From an uncultured Acidimicrobiia bacterium (GTDB lineage: Bacteria; Actinomycetota; Acidimicrobiia; Spongiisociales; UBA5794), in NCBI GenBank assembly GCA_964195545.1, contig CAXMQQ010000035.1, positions 1 to 58,263 on the forward strand: a stretch of DNA of 58,263 bases, read 5' to 3'. The position numbers and the translations under genes are program-made. How positions within the stretch are numbered: the first letter of the stretch is position 1; each line of letters begins with the position of its first letter. Under the pieces are notes generated by a model that was not told the origin of the DNA, searched no databases, and saw nothing but the letters and a program-made list of their open reading frames with translations. Positions 1,767 through 58,262 of this stretch are shown piece after piece.

Positions 1767-1792
1767 GAATACGTACTACGTATTACGTATTC
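1767..1792. repeat. Heptamer array/hairpin (TACGTAC TACGTAT TACGTAT) between convergent genes; possible bidirectional terminator
   Basis: 7-bp period; inverted repeat GAATACGTA...TACGTATTC. Confidence 0.7.
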
Positions 1793-1803
1793 CCAAGCGA
1801 AGC

Positions 1804-2262
1804 TCACCTCCGATGGCTCTTCGCCCTGTCCATCTCTCGCTTCTGCTGGCGCTCCACGATCTTCTTCCGTTTGTCGTACGTGTGACGGCCCTTCGCAAGG
1901 GCGACCTCGATCTTCGCGATACCACGAACGAAGTAGATCTGGAGCGGAACGAGCGTGAGACCTTGCTCGTTCATCTTGCCGGTGAGACGATCGATCTCCC
2001 GCCGATGCAGCAGCAGCTTCCGCTTCCGTTCCGGTGCGTGTCCACCACCGATCGCGAACGAGTACGGAGCGATGTGGGCGTTCTCCAACCAGAGTTCCCC
2101 GTCCTGTATCAAGCCGTAGGCGTCTTTGAGCTGCACTTGACCGGCGCGCAGGCTCTTCACCTCTGACCCCGTGAGAACGATGCCCGCCTCATACGTGTCG
2201 AGGATGTCGTAGTTGTAGCGTGCGCGACGGTTGGATGCGACGACCTTGTGACCTTCAGTCAT
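1804..2262 (-). CDS. smpB: SsrA-binding protein SmpB
   Basis: NRRARYNY, EAGIVLTGSEVKSLR, RKLLLHRREI, YDKR motifs. Confidence 0.98.
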   Translation of the reverse strand: MTEGHKVVASNRRARYNYDILDTYEAGIVLTGSEVKSLRAGQVQLKDAYGLIQDGELWLENAHIAPYSFAIGGGHAPERKRKLLLHRREIDRLTGKMNEQGLTLVPLQIYFVRGIAKIEVALAKGRHTYDKRKKIVERQQKREMDRAKSHRR

Positions 2263-2309
2263 GATGCGAAGACTAGGAGCGTGACGGACGATGCCGTTGC
2301 CCGGATTTG

Positions 2310-3503
2310 CTAGAAGTACTTGACCGGGTTCACGGGATTGCCGTTGATGCGGACCTCGAAGTGGAGATGGGGTCCAGTTGATACGCCGGTCGAACCAATG
2401 TAGCCGATGACCTGGCCTGCATTCACCTTCTGTCCGTTCGATACGGCGAACCTCGACTGGTGGGCATACAGCGTCACCATGCCACCGCCGTGATCGATCA
2501 TGATCGAGTTCCCGTATCCGCCCTTCACTCCTGCCAAAAGGACAGTGCCGGCGGCGGCTGCCACGATCTCTTGTCCCATGCCGCCATTCATGTCAACACC
2601 GTTGTGCATCAGGGAGTAGCCATACATCGGATGGATCCTCGGTCCGAAGCCGGACGAGATCCCGCCGGGCACGGGACGCCCGAGCGTGCCGGGGGCTGAC
2701 CCGGCCGCTTTCGCTCGCTCGGCGATGACCTTCTTGATCGACGACTCTTCCTTCTCGAGCGAGGTTATCTCCACCTCGATCTCTTCGATCTCAGCGTCAT
2801 ATTCCGAGAGGAGCGACCGCTGTCGGCGATACTCGTCCTGGAGCGCATCGCTCGACCGCTGTAGTTCGTTCTGGAGCGCACCGAGACGCTCTTCTGCGAT
2901 CTTCAGTTCGGCAAGATCCGCTGCGAGGGTGGTTTCGGTCGCTGCGATCCTGTCGGTCGCTTGTTGCTCATCGACGAGGAGGGACTCGAATCGTTCAACC
3001 GTGTCGGTCCCGCTAGCGGTGATCTCATCGAGATACGCCAGTCCGATTCCAATGTCTGTCCACACTTTCGCTGACAGGGCAACGGTCGGTAGACCGAGAC
3101 CGACCCCCATGTAGCTCTCGACTGCGTACTGTGTGGCGTCTTCCCTTGCCGTTCCAAGTTCCGACCGGGTGAGAGCGAGGGCCTGGTATTTCGCATGCAA
3201 CTCTGATCTCACTTCGCGCAGTGCCCGCTGCTTCAGCGAGAGCTCTCCGGTCGCTGCGACCACATCCATCCGCGACGAAGCCATCGACTCGAGAACGGCA
3301 TCCATACGGGCAGCGGTCGCCTGGATCTCGTTGGCCAGCGCGCTGCGATTCGTCGAAGCCGCACTGAACTCGTCGCTGAGAGCATCGATCCGACTCCTGA
3401 CGCCTTGTAGATCACGGTCGAGATCATCGGCTCCCACCGAAGGAACCACGGCGAAGATCAACACAGCGGAAAGTGTCGCGACGAGAAGACGGCGCGCGGG
3501 CAT
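2310..3503 (-). CDS. Secreted coiled-coil M23 peptidase (murein hydrolase/activator downstream of ftsEX)
   Basis: Signal peptide, long coiled coil, HNGVD and GPHLHFE zinc motifs. Confidence 0.92.
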   Translation of the reverse strand: MPARRLLVATLSAVLIFAVVPSVGADDLDRDLQGVRSRIDALSDEFSAASTNRSALANEIQATAARMDAVLESMASSRMDVVAATGELSLKQRALREVRSELHAKYQALALTRSELGTAREDATQYAVESYMGVGLGLPTVALSAKVWTDIGIGLAYLDEITASGTDTVERFESLLVDEQQATDRIAATETTLAADLAELKIAEERLGALQNELQRSSDALQDEYRRQRSLLSEYDAEIEEIEVEITSLEKEESSIKKVIAERAKAAGSAPGTLGRPVPGGISSGFGPRIHPMYGYSLMHNGVDMNGGMGQEIVAAAAGTVLLAGVKGGYGNSIMIDHGGGMVTLYAHQSRFAVSNGQKVNAGQVIGYIGSTGVSTGPHLHFEVRINGNPVNPVKYF

Positions 3504-4390
3504 CAGGTGCGCAAGTACTTGTGGACCGTGAGGCTCAGGCCACTGCCGACAAGGCCGGCAGACACCCCGAACAGCAAGACCAGCGCTCCCTGAGTGAAGA
3601 GGTAGTCAGGCTGAACCGCGACATTGATCCATTCAGGCAGATCGGTGAGACGATCGACGGCCAGCTGTTGGGCAACGACGATGAACCCAACGGCGAGACC
3701 AGCCCCCATGAAGCCTTCGATCGCGCCTTCGACGAGGAACGGCACGCGCACGTACCAATTGGAAGCGCCCACCAGACGCATGATCTCGATCTCTTCGCGG
3801 CGAGCGTAGATGGCCATATGAATCGTGTTCGCGATCAGAGCGACCGCGGCAACACCGAGAGCAACGGCAAGGAGCCAGAACATCACACGCAAGCCATCGC
3901 GGAGAGAGATCATCGCGTCGATTGCCTGTCCGGCAGATTGGACGCGCAGGAGCCCGGGGGTGGCCTGAAGGCGCGTCACAATCGTCTGGTAGTCATTGGG
4001 ATCTACGGGTTTGATTCGGAGCGATGCCGGCACGATGTCGGGGCTTTCCTCGATGACGCGCAGCGTCGCCGGCTGATTCGAGAGAAGGATCCGTGCTTCT
4101 TTGAGTGCCTCGGCCTTGGAGACGAAGGCGACGCTCTCAACCTCAGCCCAACCCTCCATCTCGGCCTGCATCTCGTCGACCGCAGTCAGAGCATTGTCGC
4201 GCACGTAAGCGATCACACGAACGTCTTCGGCCCACTGGAGCGTGTTGATTCGAACCACTTCGCCGAAGACGAGGGTTCCAAAGGTGAGCGTGAGGGAGAT
4301 GAAGACGGCCAGCACGGCACCCAACACGACAAGGCCGTTGCGTCCGATGTTGGCGAAAGCTTCTCGTAGAACGTAGGAGACGCGGGTCAT
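3503..4390 (-). CDS. ftsX: Cell division permease FtsX
   Basis: 4 TM segments, [26 protein letters not shown] motif, coupled to ftsE. Confidence 0.96.
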
Positions 4391-5349
4391 CCGTCGACCT
4401 CCTCATCGGCTTCAGATTCTTCGTCTGGAGTCTCGTCATCAGCGACGATGACCTGCTCATCCTGCTCGGCGCCCTCGATGACCTCTTCTTCGACCACATC
4501 GGCCCCTTCTACGGAGCTCTGCTCTTCCGCAGAAGATCCGGTAACCGTGGTCTCCTCGACGTCGAGGGTTGCCGTCGCAGCGACTTCGGCCGTCGTGGAG
4601 GAGTCCGACCCGGCAACGACATCAGCGATGACGACCGGAGCATCGGGGGTGTCGGAATCCTCGGACCAAGACGTTTCATAGACACCACGGCTCTCGTCGC
4701 GAACGACGCGCCCACGTTCGAGTTGAACGACCCTGCGGCGCATGGCATCGACGATCGCGTGGTCGTGCGTCGCCATCACAACGGTTGTTCCCGTACGATT
4801 GATTCGGTCGAGGATGCGCATGATTCCGACCGAAGTCGCCGGATCCAGGTTCCCGGTCGGCTCATCTGCGAGAACGATGAGCGGTCGGTTCACAAAGGCG
4901 CGTGCCACCGAGACTCGCTGCTGTTCACCGCCGGAGAGTCGCCGTGGCAATCGGTCGGCCATCTCTGAGAGGCCCACGAGTTTGAGAACCTGCGGAACCT
5001 GGGCATGGATCGCCGAGCGCGACTTCCCCGTGACCTCCATCGCGAATGCGACGTTCTCGTAGACGGTCTTGCTCGGAAGAAGCTTGAAGTCCTGGAACAC
5101 GGTGCCGATGGATCGACGGAGGTGGGGGATCTTCCAATCCGGCAGGTCGGAGGCGTGCTTCCCTGCGATCCAAATGTCACCGTTGGTCGGCTTCTCCTCG
5201 CGCATCATGAGGCGGACCAGCGTCGACTTTCCCGACCCCGAAGGGCCTACGAGAAAGACGAACTCACCCTTGTTGATGTCGAGTTCCACGTCTTTGAGGG
5301 CCACGACGCCGCCGTCGTATACCTTCGTCACATTATCGAGACGGATCAT
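4387..5349 (-). CDS. ftsE: Cell division ATP-binding protein FtsE with acidic C-terminal tail
   Basis: Start taken at MIRLDNV (ATG 5349); GPSGSGKS Walker [26 protein letters not shown]. Confidence 0.96.
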
Positions 5350-5440
5350 GAAATCCCTATCGTGGCTTCGTAGTCCTACCCCACCCGCCAACGCGTTGGC
5401 AGGTTACCCAAGGGTCCGCCGTAGGAGGTGGATTGTGATC

Positions 5441-5475
5441 GAGTTGTGAGCGGTGAGCCATGAAGTCCGAACGGA
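5441..5475. repeat. Degenerate heptamer array downstream of prfB
   Basis: GAGTTGT GAGCGGT GAGCCAT GAAGTCC GAACGGA; partial reverse complement (GCTCACGATCAC) near 5495-5505. Confidence 0.55.
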
Positions 5476-5501
5476 GTGATCCCCTCGCCGAAAGCTCACG
5501 A

Positions 5502-6609
5502 TCACTTCGCCTCGGCGCGCCGCCACTGCAGATAGCTGTCTACCAACGGATCCAGGTCTCCGTCAAGGACTCCTGTGATGTTTCCGATCTCGTGACCGGT
5601 CCGGAGGTCTTTGACCATCTGGTATGGCTGGAGGACGTATGAGCGGATCTGGCGTCCCCAACCGGCCTCGGTCTGGTCTCCGCGAATCGCATCGACCTCT
5701 TGCTTCTGCTCGAGACGGGCCCGCTCGGCTAGGCGTGCGGCGAGGAGGTGCATGGCCCGAACCCGGTTCTGAGTCTGGGACCGCTCCGCCTGGCAACTGA
5801 CCACGACACCGGTGGGCAAGTGCGTCAGCCGGACCGCCGAATCGGTCTTGTTGATGTGCTGGCCCCCGGCACCCGACGCTCGGAAGGTGTCGACCCGAAG
5901 ATCCTCCGGATTGATCTCTACCTCTTTGACGTCGACCTCGGGGATGACATCGACACCGGCGAATGCCGTGTGACGCCTGGCGTTCGAGTCGAACGGACTG
6001 ATCCGCACCAACCGATGCACACCACGCTCGCCCTCCAGGATTCCGTACGCATGATCGCCCTTGACGGTGATCGTGGCCGACTTGATGCCCGCCTCCTCAC
6101 CAACCTGGTACTCGTCTACCTCGAAGGTGAGTTCTGTTCGTTCGAGGTAACGCAGGTACATGCGAAACAGCATCTCTGCCCAGTCCTGGGCGTCGACGCC
6201 GCCCGCACCGGCGTGAACAGACATGATCGCAGTCGAATCGTCGTGCGGACCGAAGAAGAGTGTCTCGCGCTCGAGGCGGCTGAGTGTCGCCTCGGTCTCA
6301 CGAATCTCCGTCAACGCATCGTCGAGGCCCGAAGCATCGTCTTCTTCGACGGAGAGTTCGATCAACACCTCTGCGTCATCGAGCGCTTCATCCAGAGTCG
6401 CGACCTGCTCGATCGTGCGTTCGTGTCTGGCGAGCGTTCGAGTTACTTCGAGAGCGTGATCTTGGTCATCCCACAGACCGGGGGCCGACGCCTGCTCTCT
6501 CAGTTCAACGAGTTCCTGTTCCTTACCTGCGAGGTCAAAGGAACCTCCTGGCATCGTCGAGGCGAGAGCGCAAGTCGTTCAGAAGTACGCGGAGGTCGTT
6601 CGGTTCCAT
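5502..6609 (-). CDS. prfB: Peptide chain release factor 2, with programmed +1 frameshift at codon 24-25
   Basis: SPF and GGQ motifs. Upstream frame ATG6609 MEPNDLRVLLNDLRSRLDDARRFL ends at CTT TGA C (6540-6534), preceded by an internal AGGAGG (6549-6544). Confidence 0.96.
6534..6549 (-). promoter_or_regulatory. prfB autoregulatory frameshift cassette AGGAGG-TTC-CTT-TGA-C
   Basis: Exact match to the canonical RF2 slippery site and internal SD spacing. Confidence 0.93.
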
Positions 6610-6631
6610 GGTGGGATGAGCGTACCCGTCA

Positions 6632-6857
6632 GCGGGTCACTGCACCTCCTGGGGTCCAGCATCCGCACCGTGGAACTGCTTGAACCACTGCGGCCCAGAG
6701 GTCAGGGTTGTTTGGAGCGGAACCCCAGCTCCCGTGCGGAGCGCTCCGTCCTGTTGGTCCACGTCGGTTGTTCCCCGACACTGCGGCGCTGCCGGCGCCG
6801 ATCGCACCCCGAATCGCGAGCTTTGTCGAGAGTCCTGCGGATGTGGGAGTGACCCGC
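6632..6857 (-). ncRNA. Candidate structured RNA, 6S-like rod (core 6657-6791)
   Basis: Nested pairings CAGCG/TGCTG, CCGCA/TGCGG, GGAAC/GTTCC, TGGACCA/TGGTTCA; outer perfect 10-bp inverted repeat 6632-6641/6848-6857; GGGAGC and GGTTCAA motifs. Confidence 0.4.
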
Positions 6858-7083
6858 CGCGTCCCGTGTTCGGCGATGGCGACGGGGCTGCGGGCGGTGA
6901 GGCCGGCAAGGCCCATCATGACTCCCTACTGCATCGACGTTCTGGGCATCAGCGGAGGATCGAACGATGACGCGATCGCCATGCCTTTGAGAGGGCCCCC
7001 TCAGGCGAGATCAGAGGACCTGCGAGATATGCTGCATTGACGACGGTGCTCTTGAGTTCCATGGAGCCGAGAACACCATGCGC

Positions 7084-9735
<2,652 letters not shown>

Positions 9736-9937
9736 GGTGAAGTGATGATACGGGCACGAGGCCGCTTGTTGGGCAGCCACCCACCGACACTGGATCGAAG
9801 TATCCAGCCCGAGATCTCCAGAATCTGGTCCCGTATCGTGAATTGACGCCACGGATCCAGCGGGTAGGTCACAGCGAGCGCCCGCACCCTGACGCTCACG
9901 CGAGTACTCTTGATCCATCGACACGAGGTGAAGGCGA

Positions 9938-10120
9938 GTGAGTTCGAGCAACACATGTGCCGCCGGCGGTGGGGCGTTCTACGGCCTGGGCATCTTCGGA
10001 GCGTTCGTGTACTTCTGGCAGCAGGCAGACGCATTCTGGGGGTACGTGTTCTCCTTCTTCCAGGCTCTCTTCTGGCCGGCCTTCATGGTCTACGAGGTGT
10101 TTGTCGCCCTCGGCGGTTGA
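9938..10120 (+). CDS. Small two-TM membrane protein (60 aa)
   Basis: SD-like GAGGTGAAGG before GTG; two hydrophobic helices, [11 protein letters not shown] and WPAFMVY. Confidence 0.75.
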
Positions 10121-10259
10121 CCGCGAACTTCGGCAGCGATTCATGACGGCTCGGTTCCGAGAAGTCCCTGCATTGTCTCAGGCTTCTTCGTGAGTCGTCA
10201 TGGAAGGTTTGCGCCCGATTCCCCGACATGGCAGACAGCGAAGAGCGAAGACCCGGTCG

Positions 10260-10294
10260 GACGGAATACGGAATGAGGTCTACGGACTACGGAC
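10260..10294. repeat. Heptamer array downstream of response regulator
   Basis: GACGGAA TACGGAA TGAGGTC TACGGAC TACGGAC. Confidence 0.7.
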
Positions 10295-10297
10295 CAC

Positions 10298-10948
10298 TCA
10301 GGACAGGCTGATCAGGTCTTCTCTCACGGCGTACAGCACCGCTTCGTTCCTCGAGTGGAGACCGAGCTTGTCGAGGATGTTCCTGATGTGGTTCTTCACA
10401 GTGTTCTCGGAGATGAACAAGAGGACGCCGATCTCGCGGCTCGTCTGTCCCCCGGCTACGAGTTGGAGCACTTCGAGTTCGCGCCCTGTCAACACGGGCT
10501 TCCTCGACTGCAGGAGTTCTTGGTGGCGGAGTAGCTGCCGGGTTACATCAAGGAGTTTGCCTGCCATGTTCGGGGATACGGCCGCCCCGCCGCTCTCAAC
10601 GGCGTTGAGGGCCCCGACCAGAGCATCGAACGGAGCGTCCTTGGTGACATAGCCTCGAGCGCCGGCCTTCACGCCGGCAAGGAGATCCTCCTCCGATTCG
10701 CTCGCTGTGAGAAGAACCACCCGCGCAGTCGGAGCGACGGCGCTGATCTTCTCAACGACCTCGAGTCCGGACATACCCGGCATCAGGATGTCGAGAAGGA
10801 CCAGATCCGGCTGATGTTCCTCTGCAGCGGAGACTGCACCCTCGGCGTCACCGGCCTCGGCGACAACGTCGAATCCAGCGTCTCTGAGGGCGGAGCACAG
10901 TCCTGCCCGGAACAGCGGTACATCGTCCACAATGAGCAGTCTTTTCAT
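10298..10948 (-). CDS. NarL/LuxR-family response regulator (orphan)
   Basis: Receiver domain (VDD, LLDILMP, K) plus LuxR HTH ISENTVKNH; located between hpf and secA as in many actinobacteria. Confidence 0.95.
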   Translation of the reverse strand: MKRLLIVDDVPLFRAGLCSALRDAGFDVVAEAGDAEGAVSAAEEHQPDLVLLDILMPGMSGLEVVEKISAVAPTARVVLLTASESEEDLLAGVKAGARGYVTKDAPFDALVGALNAVESGGAAVSPNMAGKLLDVTRQLLRHQELLQSRKPVLTGRELEVLQLVAGGQTSREIGVLLFISENTVKNHIRNILDKLGLHSRNEAVLYAVREDLISLS

Positions 10949-10972
10949 CTCGACTCAACACTCCAGCTTGGA

Positions 10973-11521
10973 TTACTCCGGCTCGATCATGCCGAGATCG
11001 CCATCCCGCCGGTAGTAGAGCACCGACTGTTTGCCTCTGTCTGCGTCGAGGAAGACGAAGAAGTCGTGTCCGAGCATCTCCATCTGCAATACAGCTTCCT
11101 CGACCGACATGGGCCGCATCGTGAATCGTTTCCGCCTCACGATGACGGCATCCCGGTCTTGTAGGTCATCGACCGAGTTGACGACCGGGTTGAGGTCTTT
11201 GTGACTGGACTTGCGGGATCGCTGTACGAGTCGCTCTTTGAGCCTTCGGAGTTGCCGTTCGTACTTGTCGGACGCTGTGTCAAGTGCCGCTCGCGCATCG
11301 AACGCATCCGACTCAACGCGGACGATCTGGCCGCCAGCGTTCGAGGTGATCTCGACGCGATACCTGCCTTCGGTCTGCCTTGGGTTGCCGTTCTCGGAGA
11401 ATTCGACGTCGACACTCGTCACGCCGTCGAAGATCCTCCCAGCATGCTCGACCTTCTCTTGAGCGAGATCGCGGACATCGTCGGCAATCTCGGTGTTCCG
11501 CCCGTGGATCCGAACGTTCAC
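10973..11521 (-). CDS. hpf: Ribosome hibernation promoting factor (long HPF/RaiA)
   Basis: S30AE N-domain plus C-terminal PMSVEEAVLQMEMLGHDFFVF. Confidence 0.96.
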   Translation of the reverse strand: MNVRIHGRNTEIADDVRDLAQEKVEHAGRIFDGVTSVDVEFSENGNPRQTEGRYRVEITSNAGGQIVRVESDAFDARAALDTASDKYERQLRRLKERLVQRSRKSSHKDLNPVVNSVDDLQDRDAVIVRRKRFTMRPMSVEEAVLQMEMLGHDFFVFLDADRGKQSVLYYRRDGDLGMIEPE

Positions 11522-12237
11522 TCGTGCTCCTCTCCGTGACGACTGTGCCCCGCCGGACTTCTTCCGGGCGCGTCGAACCGGCCTACTCGGGTCGTTCGGG
11601 CGCGGAGGGTGCTTCGATCGGTCGGACCGTTGAACGGTTGAACGGTCACCGCACCTCCAAAGGGGCTCTCTCCTGTCTTCATCCTACTCGCGCAAGTGGC
11701 AACCAGGACAAGAGTCGGAAGACCCTCAAGTGCGGTCGCTGCTGCACGGGCCGTCGCCCCCGTCGTGAGCACGTCATCGACCAGCGCTGCGTTCTTCGGG
11801 ACCAATGAGCCGGTCGGAGCGAACGAGATCGCGGAACGTTCGTCGCGGCTGCGTCCTGCGTGCCGGCGCCACCACCATCGCGGTTTGATCGCCGCTACGA
11901 CGGGGAGCCCCGTTCGTCGAGCAACGCCTGAGGCAAGAACGGCTGCCGGGTCGATTCCGTGGCGGAACGCTCGGAGGATGGCTCTCGGCACGGGGACGAG
12001 AGCTGTCGCAGATGATGGGACTCTCTCGGCCATCGCGTCGGCGAGCGGTTCGGCTGCAGCGAACACGGCCCGATACTTGAGGGCGTGAACGAGACGCCGG
12101 GCCGAGCCCTGATGAACGAAACCGGCCACTCCGACCAGACCCGGTGCAACCGACACGTCCGGGGCGGGACGGAGCTCAAAGCGACACGGTTCACAGAGCG
12201 CCCCTGAGCAAGGCATGGTGCAAGAGAGGCACAACAT
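11518..12237 (-). CDS. comF: ComF family phosphoribosyltransferase
   Basis: CxxC...CxxC zinc ribbon, LVHALKY, LVDDVLTTGAT; start ATG 12237 follows TACGGT. Confidence 0.88.
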   Translation of the reverse strand: MLCLSCTMPCSGALCEPCRFELRPAPDVSVAPGLVGVAGFVHQGSARRLVHALKYRAVFAAAEPLADAMAERVPSSATALVPVPRAILRAFRHGIDPAAVLASGVARRTGLPVVAAIKPRWWWRRHAGRSRDERSAISFAPTGSLVPKNAALVDDVLTTGATARAAATALEGLPTLVLVATCASRMKTGESPFGGAVTVQPFNGPTDRSTLRARTTRVGRFDAPGRSPAGHSRHGEEHE

Positions 12238-12260
12238 GCCCCGACCGTAGGGACGGGGTG

Positions 12261-12357
12261 GGACAAGAAATATCAAGTAGCAAGTCACAAGACATAGGCA
12301 ACAGGACGCGAGGGCGGTCCGGTCTTGCTCCTTGTGTCTTGCTGCCTGCTACTGGAT
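12261..12357. repeat. Inverted pair of heptamer arrays forming a long hairpin between ahcY and comF
   Basis: TATCAAG TAGCAAG TCACAAG ACATAGG CAACAGG ACGCGAG ... CTTGCTC CTTGTGT CTTGCTG CCTGCTA. Confidence 0.8.
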
Positions 12358-13604: not shown

Positions 13605-14593
13605 AGTGCCCCCTTCGCGAGCATCGTCTTGAAAGCCTCCAACGTCTCAACCGGCGTCGCATCAACACCCGCCGCATCCGCCATCGCGACCGAAGCAACG
13701 TCGCCCACCACGGCAAGGCTGAAGAATCGGGCGAGTGCGCCGTCTCCGGTTGAGAGCACATCGCCGATGCGATGAACCTTGCCCGACAGCACCGTTTCTG
13801 AGAGCTCCAGGCGGTGTGCAACGCTCGGATGATCGGCGGAATCCCTGAGGTAGACCACGCCGAATGCGTCGCTCGTTTCCGGCTGCCACCCTTCGAGTTC
13901 GTTGTGGTTCATCTCCGGGACGACTCCGGCGAATGCGGGAACCTTGGCGTTCTCGTTGATCTGTGTCTTCCACCGGTATGCGGCCGTCGAGCCGACTCCA
14001 CGGCCGCCGTAGATGACCGCGGTTCGATCTTCGAGACCGGCGGCGAGGTCGCGCCCGAGTTCGACGGCGCCACCGTGCCCCCCATCGAGAAGGCTGTCGA
14101 CGACGTCGGCGGCTTCGGTGAGGGCGGCTTCGGCGTTCGGTATGTGACCACCTGCGCCGAGCATGGCGGTCACGGCGGCCGTCTGGTAGCCGACACCGGC
14201 GCGTGGCTGGAGACCTCCGGGAACCTCGACGTACGGTAGGCCGCGCTCTCCTGCGATCTCGGCGAGTCGACCTCCGGAGGCGACAGCGGCAAGATCAAGA
14301 CCGGCCGAAATCGCTTGTTCGACGCCGGAGAGCACCTCTTCGGTGTTTCCGCTGTACGAGACGGCGAGTACGCCAGCACCTGCGTCTGCCGCCCACGCGG
14401 GCAGCCCGTACCCCTGGTGGACGATCATGGGATGGCGCGGTCTCGATGCCAGCGTTCCGATGGTGGCCGCCATCGCAGATCCTCCCATGCCCAGGAGCAC
14501 GATCGGACCATCGGATTGCAGCGGAGAGATTTCGTGGCCGATCCCCCACCGGAGTTGCTCCGGAAGGGTCAGGATGTCATCGAACATCGTCAT
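13601..14593 (-). CDS. Bifunctional phosphoglucose/phosphomannose isomerase (SIS domain)
   Basis: GMGGS, SYSGNTEE, QPR, RWKTQINENAK, PEMNHNE. Confidence 0.93.
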   Translation of the reverse strand: MTMFDDILTLPEQLRWGIGHEISPLQSDGPIVLLGMGGSAMAATIGTLASRPRHPMIVHQGYGLPAWAADAGAGVLAVSYSGNTEEVLSGVEQAISAGLDLAAVASGGRLAEIAGERGLPYVEVPGGLQPRAGVGYQTAAVTAMLGAGGHIPNAEAALTEAADVVDSLLDGGHGGAVELGRDLAAGLEDRTAVIYGGRGVGSTAAYRWKTQINENAKVPAFAGVVPEMNHNELEGWQPETSDAFGVVYLRDSADHPSVAHRLELSETVLSGKVHRIGDVLSTGDGALARFFSLAVVGDVASVAMADAAGVDATPVETLEAFKTMLAKGAL

Positions 14594-16106: not shown

Positions 16107-16178
16107 GGTGGGATTGTACGGTCGCATGGGAACTGGCCGGGTCCCTGTGTCCCATCTCTTCCTACACTCATCGCAGAC

Positions 16179-16886: not shown

Positions 16887-16899
16887 GCCTCGCCTCTCC

Positions 16900-19917: not shown

Positions 19918-19920
19918 CAC

Positions 19921-46387: not shown

Positions 46388-48036
46388 CGTGCGGCCTCGA
46401 GGGATTCGCGTGCGTGGTAGGACGACCGGACGAGCGGGCCCGCTTCAACGTGCGGCAGTCCAAGTCGGACGCCTTCGGCCGTGTAGCGGATGAATTCGTC
46501 GGGCTCGACGTACCGATCTATGGGGCGATGTCTCGCCGTGGGTCGCAAGTACTGACCGATAGTGACGATGTCGACGCCGACGGCTCTCAGGTCGGCAAGT
46601 GCTCCGAACACTTCTTCTTCAGTCTCCCCCATTCCAACGATCAAGCCGGACTTCACAGCCCCCGCCGGGTTGGTCCACTTGGCGCGAGCGAGCAGGGCGA
46701 GTGAGCGGGCATAGTTCGCCGCCGTCCTGATGTCCCGTTGGAGCCTCAGGACGGTCTCGGTGTTGTGGTTCAGAACGGCCGGCTTGGATGCCATCACCGT
46801 TTCGAGGTCATCGACTGATCCCTTGAAGTCCGGGATCAGCACTTCAACCTCGCATTCGGGCATCCGCTCTCGAATGGCTGCGATGGTGTCGGCGAACACG
46901 CCTGCGCCGCCGTCCAGCAGGTCATCGCGATTCACCGACGTCAGCACAGCGTGGTGAAGCCCCATTTGTTCGACGGCTGCCGCTGCGCGCGCTGGCTCAC
47001 CGAGGTCAACGGGACCGGGTTTTCCCGTACTGACATCGCAGAACGCGCAAGCCCTCGTGCATGTCTCTCCGAGCAGCATCAGCGTCGACGTCCCCGATTC
47101 CCAGCACTCGAAGATATTGGGGCAGCCAGCCGCCTCGCACACGGTGTGGAGTTCCAAACCCCGCATCAGCTTCTTGAGATCCCTGAATCCGTCGGTGGAG
47201 AGGTTCGCCCGTACCCGCATCCATTCAGGTTTGTCCGGCTCCCCGGAGAGGAGGCCGCGAACGGTGATCGGTGTCGCGCCGATCCGATCGGCCGAGAAGA
47301 CGCCTGCAGCCACCATGGCATCGACGTCGTACGGACTGGATCGATCACGATTTGGGAAGGCGCCGAGTTGCACCTCGGGACTCCCCCCGAACACTTCTGC
47401 CGCCCGTGGGATCAGTGCTTCCACGACGGACTCCATCTTGATGGTCCGACCGGCGGTCTCAGACAGCGACGTCACGGGGCGATTCGGGATCCCACATGGG
47501 ACGATGTTCTCGAAATACCCGAGATCCGGTGCCACGTTGATCGCGAATCCGTGCGTCGAGACACCGGCCGAAATCTTCACCCCGATCGCAGCGAGCTTCC
47601 CCCGGTCGGTCCACACGCCGGTGAAGCCATCCTCGGCCCACGCCTCGATCCCAAGGTCGGCGAAGGTAGTGATCAACATCGCCTCGATGCGTCTGAGGTG
47701 ACCGACGGCGTCCCAGCCGTCAGATAGCGCTGGTACGGCAACGATCGGGTATCCAACGAGCTGGCCGGGACCGTGATACGTGATATCTCCGCCCCGGTCG
47801 GTGAATACCAGGCGGGCCCCGATGCCACTGAGGTCATCCTCTGCGATCTTCAGGTTCTCACCATCTCCGTTGCGGCCCACCGTGTAGGTGTGCGGGTGTT
47901 CAAGCAACAGGAGATAGTCGTCGCCTGAGCGGCCGGTCGCTCGCCCATCCCGGAACGCGCGTTGAAGGTCGAGTGCTTCGTCGTACGGGACGCGGCCAAG
48001 CCATCGGATCCGAAGACGCGACCCGCTTTCGGTCAT
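46384..48036 (-). CDS. lipA: Fused octanoyltransferase LipB-lipoyl synthase LipA
   Basis: RGGDITYHGPGQ and PCG (LipB); CEAAGCPNIFEC, CTRACAFC and RSSY (LipA); ATGA overlap with dlaT. Confidence 0.94.
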   Translation of the reverse strand: MTESGSRLRIRWLGRVPYDEALDLQRAFRDGRATGRSGDDYLLLLEHPHTYTVGRNGDGENLKIAEDDLSGIGARLVFTDRGGDITYHGPGQLVGYPIVAVPALSDGWDAVGHLRRIEAMLITTFADLGIEAWAEDGFTGVWTDRGKLAAIGVKISAGVSTHGFAINVAPDLGYFENIVPCGIPNRPVTSLSETAGRTIKMESVVEALIPRAAEVFGGSPEVQLGAFPNRDRSSPYDVDAMVAAGVFSADRIGATPITVRGLLSGEPDKPEWMRVRANLSTDGFRDLKKLMRGLELHTVCEAAGCPNIFECWESGTSTLMLLGETCTRACAFCDVSTGKPGPVDLGEPARAAAAVEQMGLHHAVLTSVNRDDLLDGGAGVFADTIAAIRERMPECEVEVLIPDFKGSVDDLETVMASKPAVLNHNTETVLRLQRDIRTAANYARSLALLARAKWTNPAGAVKSGLIVGMGETEEEVFGALADLRAVGVDIVTIGQYLRPTARHRPIDRYVEPDEFIRYTAEGVRLGLPHVEAGPLVRSSYHARESLEAAR

Positions 48037-49520
48037 CGAAGCTCCTGGCCCCAATCCCAGGTCTCGAGGTTCGTCTGGATCCGGTTGAGGAACTGCGTGG
48101 CGACCGATCCGTCGAACGCGCGGTGATCCCATGTGAGTCCGAGATAACCGATGTGGCGTACAGCGATGGTGTCTGTGCCGTCTGGCAGGGTTACTACAGT
48201 CGGACGCTTCTTGATCGTGTCGGTCGACAGGATCGCTACGTTCGGCAGATTGATGATCGGCGCACTCAAGTACGAGCCAAATGGTCCAGGATTGGTGATC
48301 GTAAACGTGCTTCCTGAGATGTCATCCGGTTCCAGGTCGCCGCTTCGTGCCTTCTCTGCGATCTGCCGGATGCTGCGTGCGAGCCCCTTCAGCGTCAGCC
48401 CGTCGGCCCCTCGCACGGTTGCTACGAGGAGTCCTTGCGTATCGAGGTCGACGGCGACACCGAGGTTGACACCGTGGTGGAGGGTGACCGTTCCTGCTTC
48501 GAGATCCAGGGAGCTGTTGACGACCGGGAACGAGGCGAGCGCATCCATCATCGCTCGAGCGATGAAGGGCAGGTAGGTCAAGGAGAATCCCTCCTCGTCC
48601 TTGAACCGATCACGATGCGCCGCACGCACGTGTTCGACTTGTTCGTAGTCGACCTCGATCGACGTCCAAACGTGGGCGGCCGTGCGCTTGGCATGGATCA
48701 TGTGCTCGGCGATCGTGCGGCGGAGGCGCGGGATCTCGACGACCTCGTCGCCGCCTCCGGTCGTGAGCGTCACCTTCGTTGGAGGCGCGGGCGTGCGATC
48801 CGTGGTTCCGGCGGTTACGACAGATGCCGCTGCTATTGGCGGGGGTACCGAATCCGCGATCGGTTCTGGTGCTGGAGCGGACGTCGAGGGAGCTTCTTGG
48901 GCGGCTCGCTCGGGAGCCGGTGGCGCAGGAGAAACGGCGGCCACCGGCGTTGGAGTTGGACTTGGAGTCGCAGGAGCCCCTGGTTTCGATGTGATGTACC
49001 GCTCGACGTCCTTCCTCGTAATGCGTCCGCCGTCACCGCTACCGGAGACGAGGTCGAGGTCCACGTTGTGTTCGTCCGCGAGGCGACGTACGACGGGTGA
49101 CAGGATGGCCCGTCGCGACGAGTCGCCGGAGACAACTGGAGCCGGAGTCGGAGCTGGTGGCACCGCGGCGGGTGTCGCTTCTCCCGGAGTACCCGTGGGA
49201 CCCATCGCCGACGAACCCGTGGGACCCATGGCCGCCGTGCCCGTCGATTCGATCGGCGGCTCCTCGGAAGCTGCCGTCTCACCGGCTTCACCGATGACCA
49301 CGATCGCAGTCCCCACGGTCACGGTCTCGCCGACCTGGACGAGAATCTCGCTGATCACGCCGGATGCAGGTGACGGCATCTCGGTATCCACCTTGTCGGT
49401 CGAGATCTCAACGAGGACTTCGTCCTCAGCGATCTCATCGCCGACCTGCTTGGCCCAACTCAGGATCGTTCCCTCGGTCACCGTCTCGCCGAGCTGTGGC
49501 ATCGTCACCGTCACGGGCAT
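48033..49520 (-). CDS. 2-oxoacid dehydrogenase E2 dihydrolipoamide acyltransferase
   Basis: Lipoyl domain STDKV, E3-binding domain, catalytic DHRAFDG. Confidence 0.95.
   Translation of the reverse strand: MPVTVTMPQLGETVTEGTILSWAKQVGDEIAEDEVLVEISTDKVDTEMPSPASGVISEILVQVGETVTVGTAIVVIGEAGETAASEEPPIESTGTAAMGPTGSSAMGPTGTPGEATPAAVPPAPTPAPVVSGDSSRRAILSPVVRRLADEHNVDLDLVSGSGDGGRITRKDVERYITSKPGAPATPSPTPTPVAAVSPAPPAPERAAQEAPSTSAPAPEPIADSVPPPIAAASVVTAGTTDRTPAPPTKVTLTTGGGDEVVEIPRLRRTIAEHMIHAKRTAAHVWTSIEVDYEQVEHVRAAHRDRFKDEEGFSLTYLPFIARAMMDALASFPVVNSSLDLEAGTVTLHHGVNLGVAVDLDTQGLLVATVRGADGLTLKGLARSIRQIAEKARSGDLEPDDISGSTFTITNPGPFGSYLSAPIINLPNVAILSTDTIKKRPTVVTLPDGTDTIAVRHIGYLGLTWDHRAFDGSVATQFLNRIQTNLETWDWGQELR
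49191..49238. repeat. 24-bp in-frame duplication in E2 linker (AMGPTG x2)
   Basis: ACCCGTGGGACCCAT present at 49191 and 49215. Confidence 0.75.
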
Positions 49521-52112: not shown

Positions 52113-52559
52113 TCAGGACCGAGTGAGTCGAACGGTTGCGATGGAGATGCCGCTGCCACCGGCCTTGATGCGGATCTCCCCATCGACCCCTTCGCCGTCG
52201 AAATCCATCGTCCACTCCCCGTCGGTTCCATCGGAACTGGTGATCTCGTACCCGTTCAAGGGGAGGTTGTCCTCGTAGTACGTCACTACGGCGCCGATCG
52301 ATGCAGGGAGCGTGGTGACCATCTCTGTCAAGCCACGGTTCGTGTCGACCATCGTGGCTCCCACGACGGCTTCATCCGGGATTGGAAACGAATCCGGCAC
52401 GACCTCAGGGACTGTGCCCCTTCCGAAGACGACGGCTGACGCGTTGGCATCACCGTTCGTTGTCGTTGCGGCGTCCCCCGCCGAACCGCCACATCCGGCC
52501 GCGACCAACGCCGCCACGATGAGTGCTGCAAACCCGGCAAGGGGTTTGTTCATCTGCAT
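52113..52559 (-). CDS. Putative lipoprotein
   Basis: Signal peptide with lipobox VAAGC; TATCAT 6 nt before ATG. Confidence 0.8.
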   Translation of the reverse strand: MQMNKPLAGFAALIVAALVAAGCGGSAGDAATTTNGDANASAVVFGRGTVPEVVPDSFPIPDEAVVGATMVDTNRGLTEMVTTLPASIGAVVTYYEDNLPLNGYEITSSDGTDGEWTMDFDGEGVDGEIRIKAGGSGISIATVRLTRS

Positions 52560-52582
52560 CGTCGGATGATATGGGAACAGCC

Positions 52583-52665
52583 GGACTAGGAACGAGATGA
52601 CGGACATGAGACTTCAGACCCGAGGCATCAGCCGCGATCGGGGAATCTCATGTCTCATATCTCTC
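52583..52665. repeat. Inverted heptamer arrays in divergent promoter region
   Basis: GAACGAG ATGACGG ACATGAG ACTTCAG ACCCGAG GCATCAG ... ATCTCAT GTCTCAT ATCTCTC. Confidence 0.65.
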
Positions 52666-52710
52666 ACCTACCCCTCCCCAGGGATCTGACTTCTAGTAAG
52701 TTCCTGGGCT

Positions 52711-55666: not shown

Positions 55667-56895
55667 CCGACCTCCGTTACCTCCGCGAGGACTTCCCAAT
55701 CCTCACTCGAGAGGTAAACGGGCGGCCTCTCGTCTATCTCGACTCCGCGGCAACGACCCAGAAGCCGATTCAGGTCCTCGATGCCGTCGATACGTTCTAC
55801 CGCACGAAGAACGCCAATGTCCATCGCGGGGCATACTTGCTCTCCGCAGAAGCGACCGACGCGTACGAGGGAGCCAGAGCGAAGGTCGCCTCGTTCATCA
55901 ATGCTGCGTCGCCGGACGAGCTCGTGTTCTCCCGAGGCGCCACAACCTCGCTCAACCACATCGCATACGGGTGGGGCCTCAATCACCTCTCGGAGGGCGA
56001 CCGCGTCGTGCTCACCGTCATGGAGCATCACTCCAACGTCGTTCCCTGGCAACTCGTCGCTCGCCATACCGGCATCGAACTCGTCTACCTCACGATGGAC
56101 GATCGATACGAAGTCGACCTGACCGGCCTCGAAGACCTCATCGACGAACGGGTGAAGATCGTCGCGGTCTCCGGCATGTCGAACGTGACCGGCACCCTCG
56201 GTCCAGTACGAGCCCTGGTCGAAGCCGCGCGAAGCGTTGGTGCGCTCGTCGTCGTCGATGCTGCCCAACTGGTCCCGCACGCCCCGACCGACGTGCAGGA
56301 ACTCGATGCCGACTTCCTCGTCTTCTCCGGTCACAAGATGCTTGGACCGACAGGAATAGGAGCCCTGTGGGGCAAGCCGGAGCGTCTCGAGGAGATGGAG
56401 CCCACTGAGGGTGGGGGCGAGATGATCGCCGACGTGGGACTCTACGAGTCTCGTTGGGCGCCGGTCCCCCAGAAGTTCGAAGCCGGCACTCCGCCGATCG
56501 CTCAGGCGGTCGGGCTGGGAGCCGCCGTGGACTACCTGGATGCCGTCGGCATGGAGACGGTGAGGGATCACGAACAAGAGATCACCGGCTATGCCATGAA
56601 GCGCCTTGCTGGGATCCCCGATCTCGCCGTGTATGGCCCGAGCGATCCGGAGAATCGTGGCGGCGCCGTGAGCTTCTCACTTGGTGATATCCATGCGCAC
56701 GACATCGCAACGATTCTCGACCAGCATGGCATTGCCGTTCGTGCCGGCCACCATTGTGCGAAGCCCCTGATGCGGCACCTTCAGGTTCCGGCGACAGCCC
56801 GGGCGTCGTTCTATCTCTACAACACGACCGAAGAAGTGGACCTCCTCGTCGAGGGACTCATCGAAGCCAGATCTCTGTTCGGCCTCGACGCCTGA
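55663..56895 (+). CDS. sufS: Cysteine desulfurase SufS
   Basis: YLDSAATTQKP, SGHKM, FEAGTP, RAGHHCA. Confidence 0.97.
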   Translation: MTDLRYLREDFPILTREVNGRPLVYLDSAATTQKPIQVLDAVDTFYRTKNANVHRGAYLLSAEATDAYEGARAKVASFINAASPDELVFSRGATTSLNHIAYGWGLNHLSEGDRVVLTVMEHHSNVVPWQLVARHTGIELVYLTMDDRYEVDLTGLEDLIDERVKIVAVSGMSNVTGTLGPVRALVEAARSVGALVVVDAAQLVPHAPTDVQELDADFLVFSGHKMLGPTGIGALWGKPERLEEMEPTEGGGEMIADVGLYESRWAPVPQKFEAGTPPIAQAVGLGAAVDYLDAVGMETVRDHEQEITGYAMKRLAGIPDLAVYGPSDPENRGGAVSFSLGDIHAHDIATILDQHGIAVRAGHHCAKPLMRHLQVPATARASFYLYNTTEEVDLLVEGLIEARSLFGLDA

Positions 56896-56916
56896 GAGCA
56901 GTATTGTTCCTCTCGT

Positions 56917-57363
56917 ATGTCTTCCCTTGACGAGCTCTACCGCCAGGTCATCCTCGACCATTACCGGAACCCGCGTCGCCGAGGATCCCTTTCCGGTCCT
57001 CACGTTCATGCGGAGGGGCTCAATCCATCCTGCGGGGATGAGTTCTCCCTCGATCTCCAGATCGAAGACGGTGTCATCACAGACGCGGCCATCCAAGGCC
57101 AGGGCTGCTCGATCTCGCAGGCATCCGGGTCCATGATGACCGACGTGATCGTCGGCAAGACGATCGACGAAGCCCGGGAAGCCACAACGACGTTCAAATT
57201 GATGATGAGCATTGAGGAAGGGGAGGATCCCCTTGATCCGGAGCGCCCGGGCGCCGTGCTTGGAGATCTCGAAGCGCTGCAGGGAGTGAAGAAGTTCCCG
57301 GTGCGCATCAAGTGCGCGGATCTTCCCTGGACGACGCTCACCGACGCCCTCGATCGAGCGTGA
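56917..57363 (+). CDS. sufU: SUF system NifU-like protein SufU
   Basis: LYRQVILDHY, NPSCGD, GCSISQAS, RIKCA. Confidence 0.96.
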   Translation: MSSLDELYRQVILDHYRNPRRRGSLSGPHVHAEGLNPSCGDEFSLDLQIEDGVITDAAIQGQGCSISQASGSMMTDVIVGKTIDEAREATTTFKLMMSIEEGEDPLDPERPGAVLGDLEALQGVKKFPVRIKCADLPWTTLTDALDRA

Positions 57364-57396
57364 GTGTCACTGATGTCAACTCGGCAAGATAGAGGC

Positions 57397-57978
57397 ATGA
57401 GATACTCACCAAATACGGCGCTCATCGTCGTCGATGTGCAGAACGACTTCGCCGACCCGGACGGTTCTCTCTACGTGAGCGGAGGCGAAACGACGATCCC
57501 GTTCATCAACGAACAGATCGCGGCGGCGGCTGACGCTGGGGCAACCGTCATCTACACCAGGGATTGGCATCCCGAGTCAACGCTCCACTTCGCCAAAGAT
57601 GGTGGGATCTGGCCGGTGCACTGCGTCGGCGAAACTTGGGGATCTGGATTCCATCCGGATCTCAACGCGAACGGTGAAGAGATCAAGAAGGGCACGCGCG
57701 GAGAGGATGGCTACTCGGGATTCACCGTTCGGGATCCGGAAACGGGTGCGGAGTCGTCAACGGGCCTCGGGAGTCTTCTGCGGGACAAGGGAATCACTGA
57801 TGTGGTCGTGGTCGGCCTCGCGACCGATTACTGCGTGAAAGAGACCGCGCTCGACGGCACTCGTTTGGGCTTCACGACGACGCTACTCACGGACGGAGTC
57901 CGTCCGGTGGATCTCACTTCTGGTGATGGGGCAAGGGCGATCGCTGAGATGGTCGATGGCGGGGTCATCGTTCGGTAG
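57397..57978 (+). CDS. pncA: Nicotinamidase/pyrazinamidase
   Basis: VDVQNDF, DWHP, WPVHCV, GLATDYCV. Confidence 0.93.
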   Translation: MRYSPNTALIVVDVQNDFADPDGSLYVSGGETTIPFINEQIAAAADAGATVIYTRDWHPESTLHFAKDGGIWPVHCVGETWGSGFHPDLNANGEEIKKGTRGEDGYSGFTVRDPETGAESSTGLGSLLRDKGITDVVVVGLATDYCVKETALDGTRLGFTTTLLTDGVRPVDLTSGDGARAIAEMVDGGVIVR

Positions 57979-58262
57979 TCGGTGGCCGTCTGCGGTGGCG
58001 TACTGGGTATCGGGTACGCCGGGCGGGTCGGTCTGGGTGGGTCTGGGTTTGTCGGGGTTCTGAGCAAGCGTCGTTTGAGTGGTGGGCTGTCGGGGTCGAT
58101 TCGGAAGCCTTGTTGGTGGATTGCAACATGGTGGTGGAACCAGCACAGGGTGGTGAGGTTCTCTGGGTTGTGGGATCCGGCGTTGGAACGCAGGCGAATG
58201 TGGTGGGGTTCGAGCCGATACCGAGATGTGCAGCCTGTAATGGTGCAACTGCGGTCGCGATG
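57828..58262 (-). CDS. 3' end of HNH endonuclease (DUF222/13E12-like), truncated by the window edge
   Basis: Frame from 58262 reads HRDRSCTITGC...EPHHI......G.HNPENLTTLCWFHHH; A/C-rich coding strand; first stop at 57828. Confidence 0.85.
   Translation of the reverse strand, partial: HRDRSCTITGCTSRYRLEPHHIRLRSNAGSHNPENLTTLCWFHHHVAIHQQGFRIDPDSPPLKRRLLRTPTNPDPPRPTRPAYPIPSTPPQTATDYRTMTPPSTISAIALAPSPEVRSTGRTPSVSSVVVKPKRVPSSAVSFTQ
57972..58020. repeat. Heptamer array starting at the pncA stop
   Basis: GTAGTCG GTGGCCG ... GTACTGG GTATCGG GTACGCC. Confidence 0.65.

Follow-up and report, generated by a model that had tools for sequence, protein, structure and literature searches.

Why should the DNA at so many gene junctions of one bacterial genome repeat itself every seven nucleotides when the repeated letters differ from junction to junction? 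The question is raised by a 58,263-nt contig, CAXMQQ010000035.1 of GenBank assembly GCA_964195545.1, from an uncultured Acidimicrobiia bacterium (GTDB lineage Actinomycetota; Acidimicrobiia; Spongiisociales; UBA5794); this whole stretch is called the window here. A sequence-only reading of it listed eleven such arrays and took them for one dispersed family, made by a dedicated mechanism or serving as a periodic RNA-binding or termination system in 3' untranslated regions (3' UTRs). The explanation favoured here, with moderate confidence, is that the arrays and the inverted arms of a small resident cassette with an S23p gene (PF05635; also 23S-rRNA intervening sequence (IVS) or Avd-like) form a single repeat system, that the genes have decayed in this genome, and that orphaned arms remain.

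Period-7 arrays in the window and the genome

The window is contig C35 of a metagenome-assembled genome (MAG) in 91 contigs, with 2.08 Mb, 62.5% G+C and a rated completeness of 83.7%. A dicodon-based caller gave 2081 genes covering 90% of the genome, with exact stop codons and approximate start codons; it overlooked a 61-residue open reading frame (ORF) at 19593-19778. Genome-wide, intergenic DNA matches itself at lag 7 with an identity of 0.2806; neighbouring lags give about 0.263 and coding DNA gives 0.2515, and echoes appear at lags 14 and 21. The lag-7 autocorrelation that had been proposed as a test thus shows an excess confined to intergenic DNA. Arrays were scanned for as runs of self-matches scored +1/-2 at thresholds of at least 11 and at least 9. 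At the higher threshold there are 51 intergenic lag-7 arrays, compared to 0-5 at the other lags from 4 to 15, lag 14 excepted (27), and 0.4 in shuffles. At the lower one there are 157 lag-7 arrays, 105 of them mostly intergenic, and 3-8 intergenic arrays at lags 5, 8, 10, 11 and 13. Individual arrays are short, with a median of 24 nt and 3.4 units, and together they account for 1.3% of intergenic DNA.

The eleven intervals in the window had been chosen by eye, so unbiased scans were added. Lag 7 is the best lag among 4-12 for every one of the eleven, with lag-7 identities of 0.43-0.93 and shuffle p values of 0.0002-0.017; the weakest of them are 5441-5475, 26421-26469 and 57975-58020. A blind sliding scan (28 comparisons, at least 18 matches) gave seven lag-7 regions, compared to 0-2 at lags 4, 5, 8, 10, 11 and 13. 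These regions (1762-1799, 10258-10304, 12260-12306, 19803-19839, 19871-19919, 32421-32466 and 40302-40336) all coincide with listed loci. Tandem Repeats Finder (TRF) recovers six listed loci and adds 52645-52663 to the blind-scan set.

Chance or faulty assembly might produce such a pattern, and two observations lean that way. Four of the eleven intervals (5441, 26421, 52590 and 57975) are weak and missed by the sliding scan, although TRF catches part of the 52590 interval, and arrays adjoin assembly gaps in related genomes. The 51 intergenic arrays found where shuffles give 0.4 and other lags 0-5 speak against it, as do independently assembled genomes with arrays at the same junctions. The genome-wide lag scans and the sliding scan of the window refute chance and artefact, which are given practically no credence. 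Scaffold gaps of 100 N stand beside or between long heptamer arrays in two relatives, G011 and G012 (loci L036-L040); for example, in G011 four CTGTCTC units, the N run and seven more CTGTCTC units follow one another. Contigs of sequencing runs X1 and X3 break at 19876-19917. Arrays break short-read assemblies, and array counts in MAGs are therefore lower bounds.

The arrays are real and belong to a known class, the heptanucleotide long simple sequence repeats (LSSR) that resemble the short tandemly repeated repetitive (STRR) sequences, of which they are a sparse and partly decayed new example. They consist of head-to-tail 7-nt units above chance, they occupy many loci per genome with an intergenic bias (105 of 157 arrays), and their copy number and sequence vary among close relatives. 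The different core motifs noted at first sight are many unit types indeed, yet they are not unrelated. The 105 units, taken in any rotation and on either strand, align to a degenerate G-A-(C/G)-(T/A)-(A/G)-C-N (G-A-S-W-R-C-N) with 5.46 bits, compared to 3.5-3.9 in letter-shuffled units, and a few families recur (of 49 classes, the six largest hold 9, 9, 7, 6, 5 and 5 arrays). The view of the arrays as one dispersed family is borne out.

Several arrays had been described as inverted pairs, and this is so. A reverse-complement partner within 150 nt, at 12 or more of 14 matches, exists for 14 of the 105 arrays, compared to 3 in each of two controls. In the window the pairs at 12255-12359 (minimum free energy -39.7 kcal/mol, z -4.63) and 52585-52680 (-36.7 kcal/mol, z -3.76) fold strongly, with none of 200 shuffles as good in either case, and the pair at 26415-26470 folds weakly (-16.9 kcal/mol, z -1.64). 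Two complementary stem-forming arms are thus present at 12272-12357 and 52587-52670 and, weakly, at 26421-26469. The solitary arrays lack them, and those at 5441, 10260 and 19804-19917 are without structure (z 0.01 to +0.87).

Most arrays begin close to a stop codon, as the sequence-only reading had it. Nine of the eleven in the window start within 26 nt of one, and four lie at convergent junctions (1770, 26421, 32433 and 40302); 52590-52665 is in a divergent region, and 19804-19838 is upstream of a small gene. The same bias toward gene ends appears when arrays are mapped against stop codons in the whole genome. A facing stop codon lies no more than 10 nt away for 31 of 83 arrays, compared to 20.6 expected from 1000 random placements in the same gaps (maximum 31), a comparison that is somewhat generous because the placements were barred from overlapping genes, yet 16 observed arrays overlap gene ends. 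Convergent gaps, with 18% of gap bases, contain 33 of the 102 arrays that have two neighbouring genes, and divergent gaps, with 29% of gap bases, contain 19 of them (chi-square p 0.0007). Several arrays run through the stop codon into the final codons of the gene. TAG is the stop codon of 17 of the 30 genes with an array within 7 nt, compared to 31.5% genome-wide (p 0.004).

S23p cassettes in related genomes

Of the 21 genomes of the genus, 18 have one to four PF05635 genes each that score above the cut-off; no claim made here depends on the unpublished genome G021. Cassettes were read at 16 of 19 loci, with L067 read in addition and L066 and L069 left out. Tandem arms of period 7 or 8 were called on both sides of the gene in 11 of the 16 and on at least one side in 15. 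Between the upstream arm and the Pfam match lie 62-107 nt, and between the match and the downstream arm 39-70 nt. In at least six loci, as judged by eye, 2-5 nt separate the preceding stop codon from the start of the upstream arm, a geometry that the arrays in the window also have.

The arms use the same units as the dispersed arrays. Cassette arms are built of GACAGCA, GACACGA, GTACTGA, GTAGAAA, CAAGTAG, CGGTATT and similar heptamers, and 25 of the 105 intergenic units of this genome are identical to one of 12 arm classes (shuffled mean 2.1, maximum 8); 65 are within one mismatch of an arm class (shuffled mean 24.0, maximum 36). The arrays here therefore share the unit families of bona fide cassettes. 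A link between heptamer arrays and four-helix-bundle genes (TIGR02436 or PF05635) had been drawn in the sequence-only reading, together with the remark that the window lacks such a gene. Both statements are confirmed, the first for the genus and the second by the PF05635 search. In the window, and in the genome as a whole, no PF05635 match reaches the cut-off, and only three decayed S23p copies have been detected in the genome. The PF05635 gene between the arms is found in relatives, including at a junction orthologous to part of the window.

Cassettes of relatives map to five junctions of this genome. The first is the secA/response regulator junction at 9780-10298 of the window. A search for four-helix-bundle genes flanked by the same arrays found six there, in G018, G009, G016, G005 and G011 and, in the opposite orientation, in G004; a cassette at this junction also occurs in 4 of 24 other Acidimicrobiia loci. 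This genome has a small membrane ORF and the arrays at 10237-10294 instead. At a junction on contig C6 (56363-56571), four GACAGCA units remain on the cassette sense strand (56486-56515), together with the leader and a few codons but no gene. The junction at 4688-5158 of contig C9 holds an S23p pseudogene that is frameshifted, interrupted by an internal stop and truncated at its 5' end (tblastn E 3.7e-10), the one at 5923-6609 of C21 an inverted pair of TCTCACA type without a gene, and the one at 71944-71955 of C6 an empty gap of 11 nt. In addition, contig C29 carries a truncated S23p ORF of 83 residues that scores 24.6 bits, compared to the PF05635 cut-off of 33.8.

The hairpin at 12272-12357 of the window aligns with both arms of the S23p cassette of G014 (L061), including the variant unit CAAGACA and a 14-nt inner flank, GGTCCGGTCTTGCT. 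Because arms, variant unit and inner flank all align, this hairpin is a gene-less relative of the G014 cassette at another junction. Cassettes of G017 and G015 have arms made of GACACGA-type units, comparable to those at 26421-26469. The two arms of a cassette covary. The upstream unit is the reverse complement of the downstream one in 8 of 11 cassettes, with one mismatch in two more and two mismatches in the last, compared to a mean of 3.07 mismatches between cassettes. The stem must therefore be selected for or repaired.

Some further features of the cassettes can be noted. At the secA/response regulator junction, the S23p copy of G004 has an in-frame TGA (contig C6, L160) and that of G009 an in-frame TAG (contig C6, L062); because of these stops the gene is seen to be decaying in other species of the genus as well. 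A 60-residue hydrophobic ORF (9938-10120, forward strand) occupies the place where six relatives have the cassette. Compared by eye, the 75 nt that precede the S23p start in L051-L065 have in common a TTCCAA-like box and a TGGTAG- or TGATAT-like box 8-14 nt upstream of the start codon, which suggests that the cassette may be transcribed from a promoter of its own, located in the upstream arm, into an mRNA that is almost leaderless. Transcripts with both arms would then arise by read-through alone. In two records (L078 and L082), both titled 'uncultured Kiloniellales bacterium', the actinobacterial-type response regulator seen here (74-75% identity) occurs together with an S23p cassette; these bins are probably mislabelled or mixed.

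Proteins of the PF05635 family resemble Avd, the accessory protein of diversity-generating retroelements (DGRs), in sequence and structure, according to the passages of PMC10053308 on the family. A reverse transcriptase (PF00078) was found in 3 of the 21 genus genomes and not in this one. This is too rare for the S23p genes to be parts of DGRs, and a link to such elements was rejected.

The layout that emerges runs from an upstream stop codon through an arm of 3-6 units, the gene for an Avd-like four-helix-bundle S23p protein and a complementary arm to the next gene. Decay of the genes in this genome would have left single orphaned arms and gene-less paired arms, and the orphans would occupy the sites of cassette arms, either immediately behind a stop codon or in a convergent gap. 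The arrays would change by point mutation and, we infer, replication slippage, and would be homogenised within each array. In this scheme an array keeps its place from one species to the next, while its units are replaced in sequence, in number and at times in length (7 or 8). Paired arms would be kept complementary and are predicted to fold into stems of 20-35 bp. By analogy, such stems are of the kind that RNase III cuts in 23S rRNA intervening sequences, and processing of the RNA may occur at them likewise. Single arms probably survive as relics and have no role that depends on their sequence.

Turnover at conserved junctions and the origin of the arrays

The cassettes themselves are mostly inherited in place, as the S23p proteins cluster by junction (6 label changes, with a minimum of 5, compared to 12.1 in shuffles; none of 200 shuffles as low). 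The secA/response regulator junction, however, holds two distinct S23p lineages, which implies at least one replacement. Arrays persist too. The comparison of orthologous junctions, one of the tests proposed for this DNA, covers 18 of 30 loci, those with both flanking genes, and shows arrays that stay where they are and change in unit, copy number and period. For example, the junction between the carboxylase and mutase genes (32433-32460) has 7-mers here, 8-mers in G018, G007 and G002, and inverted 7/14-mers in G005 and G012; no array was found at this junction in G011 or in more distant relatives (mutase 78-79% identical). An array lies 3-10 nt downstream of the stop codon of S-adenosylhomocysteine (SAH) hydrolase in all six genomes compared, made of five different units; G012 was skipped for its N run, and the others have no anchor in the sampled stretches. 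The locus at 19804-19838 has GTAGTCG/GTAGTCC or GTATTCC arrays in G012 and G002, the junction at 19876-19917 has GCTCATG-type units in G012, and the junction at 40302-40371 has other arrays in G011 and G018.

Related strains also turned up among four sequencing runs, X1, X3 and X6 included, which were compared as contigs and not as reads. In a related strain of run X6, 74 other letters replace 12250-12358. A co-occurring contig of run X1 has an 8-mer array beside 10304.

Even the period turns over. Period 8 outnumbers period 7 by 12 arrays to 4 in 80 kb of G018, and one S23p clade has 8-nt arms in all three of its cassettes, compared to none of 13 other cassettes. The conserved period with variable sequence from which a dedicated mechanism had been deduced therefore holds within this genome, but across the genus the period is 7 or 8. 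Such a pattern would also follow from slippage in place and concerted evolution.

Enrichment beside stop codons and in convergent gaps, paired arms that stay complementary and fold well, and an array after the SAH hydrolase stop in six of six genomes despite differing sequence are what sites acting in transcripts would show, whether in the form of periodic sites bound by an RNA-binding protein, of factor-dependent terminators or of elements that stabilise 3' UTRs. Against this, no preference of the unit consensus for either strand was found relative to the transcription of neighbouring genes (20 sense, 30 antisense). Nineteen of 102 arrays are in divergent gaps and some lie upstream of genes. 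The solitary arrays are unstructured, and at one junction the unit and even the period differ among close relatives, which argues against a sequence-specific reader. The periodic RNA-binding or termination system once suggested for these 3' UTRs is hence not upheld, and a function in transcripts is regarded as quite improbable.

A scan of window positions 1-20000 for U-tract terminators and sigma-70 promoters found nothing at the arrays other than one partial terminator-like site, at 12312-12330 in the hairpin at 12272-12357; terminator-like sites numbered 17 in this part, compared to 11.3 ± 3.2 in shuffles. Intrinsic (rho-independent) terminators were rejected for the arrays of the same 20 kb, where a G+C-rich stem with a U tract was found at no array beyond that partial site.

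Change of copy number and unit at one junction is just what slippage predicts, and most arrays are solitary both here and in relatives. The arrays might thus be ordinary slippage-prone simple sequence repeats (SSRs) without a tie to S23p, their 7-nt units set by the hold of the polymerase on its template and the cassette arms being just another site. In many genomes, those of Actinobacteria among them, no long SSR was more abundant than heptanucleotides, according to Mrazek et al. (2007) as summarised in passages of PMC4679880 and PMC4692102, where polymerase slippage is proposed. The units are not arbitrary, however; they have a consensus in common, and a handful of families returns at locus after locus and again in the cassette arms. 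The preference of G018 for period 8 (12 to 4) is not what a polymerase footprint of fixed size would predict. Five S23p-negative genomes of the same class and of similar biology have no period-7 array of three or more copies in about 170 kb, compared to 21 in 160 kb of five S23p-positive ones outside the genus. Plain slippage is considered unlikely, if with a real chance of being right.

This last comparison raises the possibility that the arrays depend on the gene itself. PF05635 was detected in 10 of 151 sampled genomes of the class, all in the same order. The S23p-positive genomes compared have 4 (G167), 6 (G066), 1 (G086), 0 (G112) and 10 (G090) arrays, and the S23p-negative ones (G136, G038, G053, G082 and G148) have 0 each. 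The counts are of TRF period-7 arrays with at least three copies in arbitrary stretches of 10-80 kb per genome, excluding loci L176, L177, L186 and L187 (1-5 kb); the samples are small and the genomes related. Within the genus, the syntenic samples of the three genomes without an intact S23p gene have 3.7 (G006), 5.1 (the present genome) and 7.5 (G013) arrays per 100 kb, compared to 3.3-36.5 in eleven others (uncorrected p 0.044); the three are among the five lowest of 14, G005, G010 and G015 being omitted for loci of only 4-7 kb. That array abundance follows the S23p gene across the class is a lead rather than a result.

In a stronger version, whatever process makes and renews the arrays would depend on the gene for S23p, an Avd-like pentamer, and the cassette lineage would set the unit length. 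The class counts, the low density in genus genomes without the gene, and the clade-specific 8-nt arms together with the mostly 8-nt solitary arrays of G018, the one genome of that clade sampled at length, hint at this. G011 stands against it, since its S23p gene belongs to the clade with 8-nt arms and its solitary arrays are 7-nt. On balance, a gene-dependent origin is doubtful.

Descent of the solitary arrays from cassette arms, the explanation preferred here, is suggested by unit family and position, and several observations weigh against it. Three decayed S23p copies were found, compared to 105-139 intergenic arrays, and for most of these unit family and position are the sole grounds for descent. 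Most arrays are solitary in relatives too; in 80 kb of G018, 2 of 16 flank an S23p gene. The common pool of units gives no direction, so that the arms could be one more site of a genome-wide repeat process. The cassettes are long-term residents, as the clustering of S23p by junction indicates, so a hundred past insertions are hard to picture. The S23p-positive genomes G086 and G112 are array-poor (20-40 kb sampled), which counts equally against a gene-dependent process. Finally, an intact S23p gene may lie in the unassembled part of an assembly that is 83.7% complete. What is observed directly is the reality of the arrays, their positional pattern, the consensus, the common pool of units, the cassettes at orthologous junctions, the decay of S23p in this genome, the covariation of arms and the turnover.

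The arrays of the window and related repeat systems

The gene order of the window is actinobacterial, with tmRNA, smpB, an M23 peptidase gene, ftsX, ftsE, prfB, secA and hpf, followed by genes for DUF5719, CofD and F420 ligase. The first array (1770-1791; TACGTAC TACGTAT TACGTAT) is self-complementary and lies between convergent genes for a methyltransferase (stop 1764) and smpB (stop 1804); TRF gives period 7 with 3.1 copies, lag-7 matches are 13 of 14 and the fold has z -2.34. The sole Rfam match in the window at gathering thresholds is the tmRNA, whose 5' part (RF00023, 87.3 bits) lies at 1-205 on the reverse strand, clipped by the window start. It is about 1.6 kb from smpB (1804-2262, reverse strand), with two other genes between.

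A weak and degenerate array (5441-5475; GAGTTGT GAGCGGT GAGCCAT and further units) lies 26 nt 3' of the prfB stop (5502, reverse strand). Its lag-7 matches are 15 of 28 (p 0.0016), it is missed by TRF and the blind scan, and its fold has z 0.01. The array at 10237-10294 has two AGCGAAG units and then GACGGAA TACGGAA TGAGGTC TACGGAC TACGGAC, and ends 3 nt from the stop of a LuxR-type response regulator gene (10298-10948, reverse strand). TRF reports it as 10237-10251 and 10261-10294, and the blind scan also finds it; its fold has z +0.87. The nearest named records to this response regulator are Acidimicrobiia MAGs. The gene-less hairpin at 12272-12357 (reverse strand), seen by folding and by its alignment to the G014 arms, has arms of CAAGTAG and CTTGCTN type and begins at the stop of the SAH hydrolase gene (12357-13604, reverse strand).

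Two arrays lie directly upstream of the 61-residue ORF (19593-19778, reverse strand), which has a zinc-ribbon-like CxxC...CxC..C pattern and is conserved in G018, G012, G002, G016 and G009. The nearer one (19804-19838; GTAGTCC GTACTCA GGACTCT GTAGTCC CTAATCC) is 25 nt from it, with lag-7 matches of 19 of 28, and is found by the blind scan. The other (19876-19917; GCTCAAA GCTCATA TCTCAGA GCTCAAA TCTCACC GCTCAAC) lies 3 nt 3' of the stop of an ORF at 19921-20307 (reverse strand), with TRF periods of 7, 14 and 21 and lag-7 matches of 25 of 35. Sequencing run X1, labelled marine sediment metagenome, contains 94% of sampled words from 10001-20000 of the window. The tandem repeats of 15/30 nt at 20852-20937 (TGTCGTCGTCGGTCGC-type, TRF score 92-93) lie within the DUF5719 gene (20479-21975) and are presumably a coding low-complexity repeat.

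A short inverted pair (26421-26469; GAGACGA GAGACTC and, after a spacer, ATCTCGT GTCTCGC) fills the convergent gap between the genes for F420 ligase (stop 26417) and an epimerase (stop 26468), with lag-7 matches of 18 of 42 (p 0.007). The array at 32433-32460 (GTAGTCG GTATTCC GTAGCCC GTACTCG; TRF period 14, lag-7 14 of 21) begins on the TAG stop of the biotin carboxylase gene, and 4 nt separate its end from the stop of the methylmalonyl-CoA mutase gene. Two arrays stand at 40302-40371 (TRF 40304-40325, lag-7 30 of 63, fold z -2.18). The first, GAAGTCG GCAGTCG GTAGTCG GTATCCG, spans the ThiF/MoeB stop (40317-40319), and the second, TCAAGGC TCAGAAT TCAGAGC, precedes the stop of a convergent CAP-domain gene (40376). 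Further along, an ORF at 46384-48132 (reverse strand) encodes a lipoyl ligase A/B catalytic domain and then a radical-SAM domain; it looks like a LipB-LipA-type fusion, or two genes joined by an overlong start call. The gene-less hairpin at 52587-52670, detected by folding and by TRF at 52645-52663, has arms of GACATGA and TCTCATG type and lies in the divergent gap between an ORF at 52113-52607 and dsbB (52711). The last array (57975-58020; GTAGTCG GTGGCCG and further units) is weak and begins on the TAG stop of an isochorismatase gene. Its lag-7 matches are 18 of 39 (p 0.017) and its fold has z -2.56, and period-7 TRF and the blind scan both miss it.

Heptamer repeats of other bacteria offer several parallels. 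STRR sequences proper are heptamers of filamentous cyanobacteria, which likewise form intergenic tandem arrays with several unit types per genome; they differ in phylum and in units, so that the present arrays are not STRR in the strict sense. Three heptanucleotides are described for Calothrix PCC 7601 in a passage of PMC4692102. The heptanucleotide LSSR in general, as outlined in the summaries cited above, are similarly tandem and intergenic, occupy many loci, occur sporadically across phyla including Actinobacteria and vary between relatives. Here, in contrast, the arrays are short, have a degenerate consensus and are tied to S23p cassettes by unit family and position, a tie that the passages concerned do not mention.

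In Xanthomonas and Nostoc, heptamers of GGGAATC or GGGGAYT type stand at conserved junctions, vary in length and sequence and include some inverted pairs between convergent genes (PMC4692102, passages on these genera). They resemble the present arrays in being intergenic, in their inverted pairs at convergent genes and in keeping to the same junctions in related species. In contrast to the units here, they are G-rich and can form quadruplexes, and those passages draw no link to S23p. Marine Beggiatoaceae have TAACTGA direct repeats in many sets of 2-6 copies, intergenic and with no known mechanism, as described in part of PMC4679880. These are again many short sets of heptamers in intergenic DNA, but they consist of a single unit mostly just upstream of start codons, whereas the arrays here have many related units and mostly follow stop codons.

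The closest parallel to the cassettes is the 23S rRNA IVS of Coxiella burnetii. In the sections of PMC4990558 that deal with it, tandem GACAGAT heptamers upstream of the S23p ORF vary in number among strains, RNase III cuts at the first repeat and the ORF is under reductive evolution; a solved S23p structure from Xanthomonas is also mentioned. The S23p gene there too lies within complementary stem-forming termini, and GACAGAT fits G-A-S-W-R-C-N at six of seven positions. Unlike the IVS, the cassettes here stand between protein-coding genes and not in rRNA, both of their arms are arrays and most arrays have no gene; RNase III cutting is known, in those sections, for the rRNA IVS only. That paper was the sole printed link between S23p and tandem heptamers found in a search of the literature, supplements being outside its range. 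No paper that connects S23p cassettes with heptamer arrays on chromosomes at large came up in the same search; PMC8700078 refers to four-helix-bundle genes and says nothing of repeats.

For annotation, these arrays are best seen as sequences that supply or adjoin stop codons and break assemblies, and they should not be read by default as terminators or regulatory sites. To our knowledge, reports of heptanucleotide repeats in bacteria go back to about 1990, with no origin or role yet accepted for them, and the S23p/IVS family has been unexplained for about as long. The genus examined here offers a compact natural series, from intact cassettes through in-gene stops, a frameshifted pseudogene, an arm and leader without a gene and gene-less hairpins to single orphan arms. 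Because the series lies at conserved junctions and its arms covary, the dependence of the repeats on the S23p gene can be tested by comparative genomics and cloning. If the arrays were gene-dependent, the long-unexplained heptanucleotide repeats of bacteria would be the footprint of the S23p family, and genomes that have lost the gene would keep its decaying orphans.

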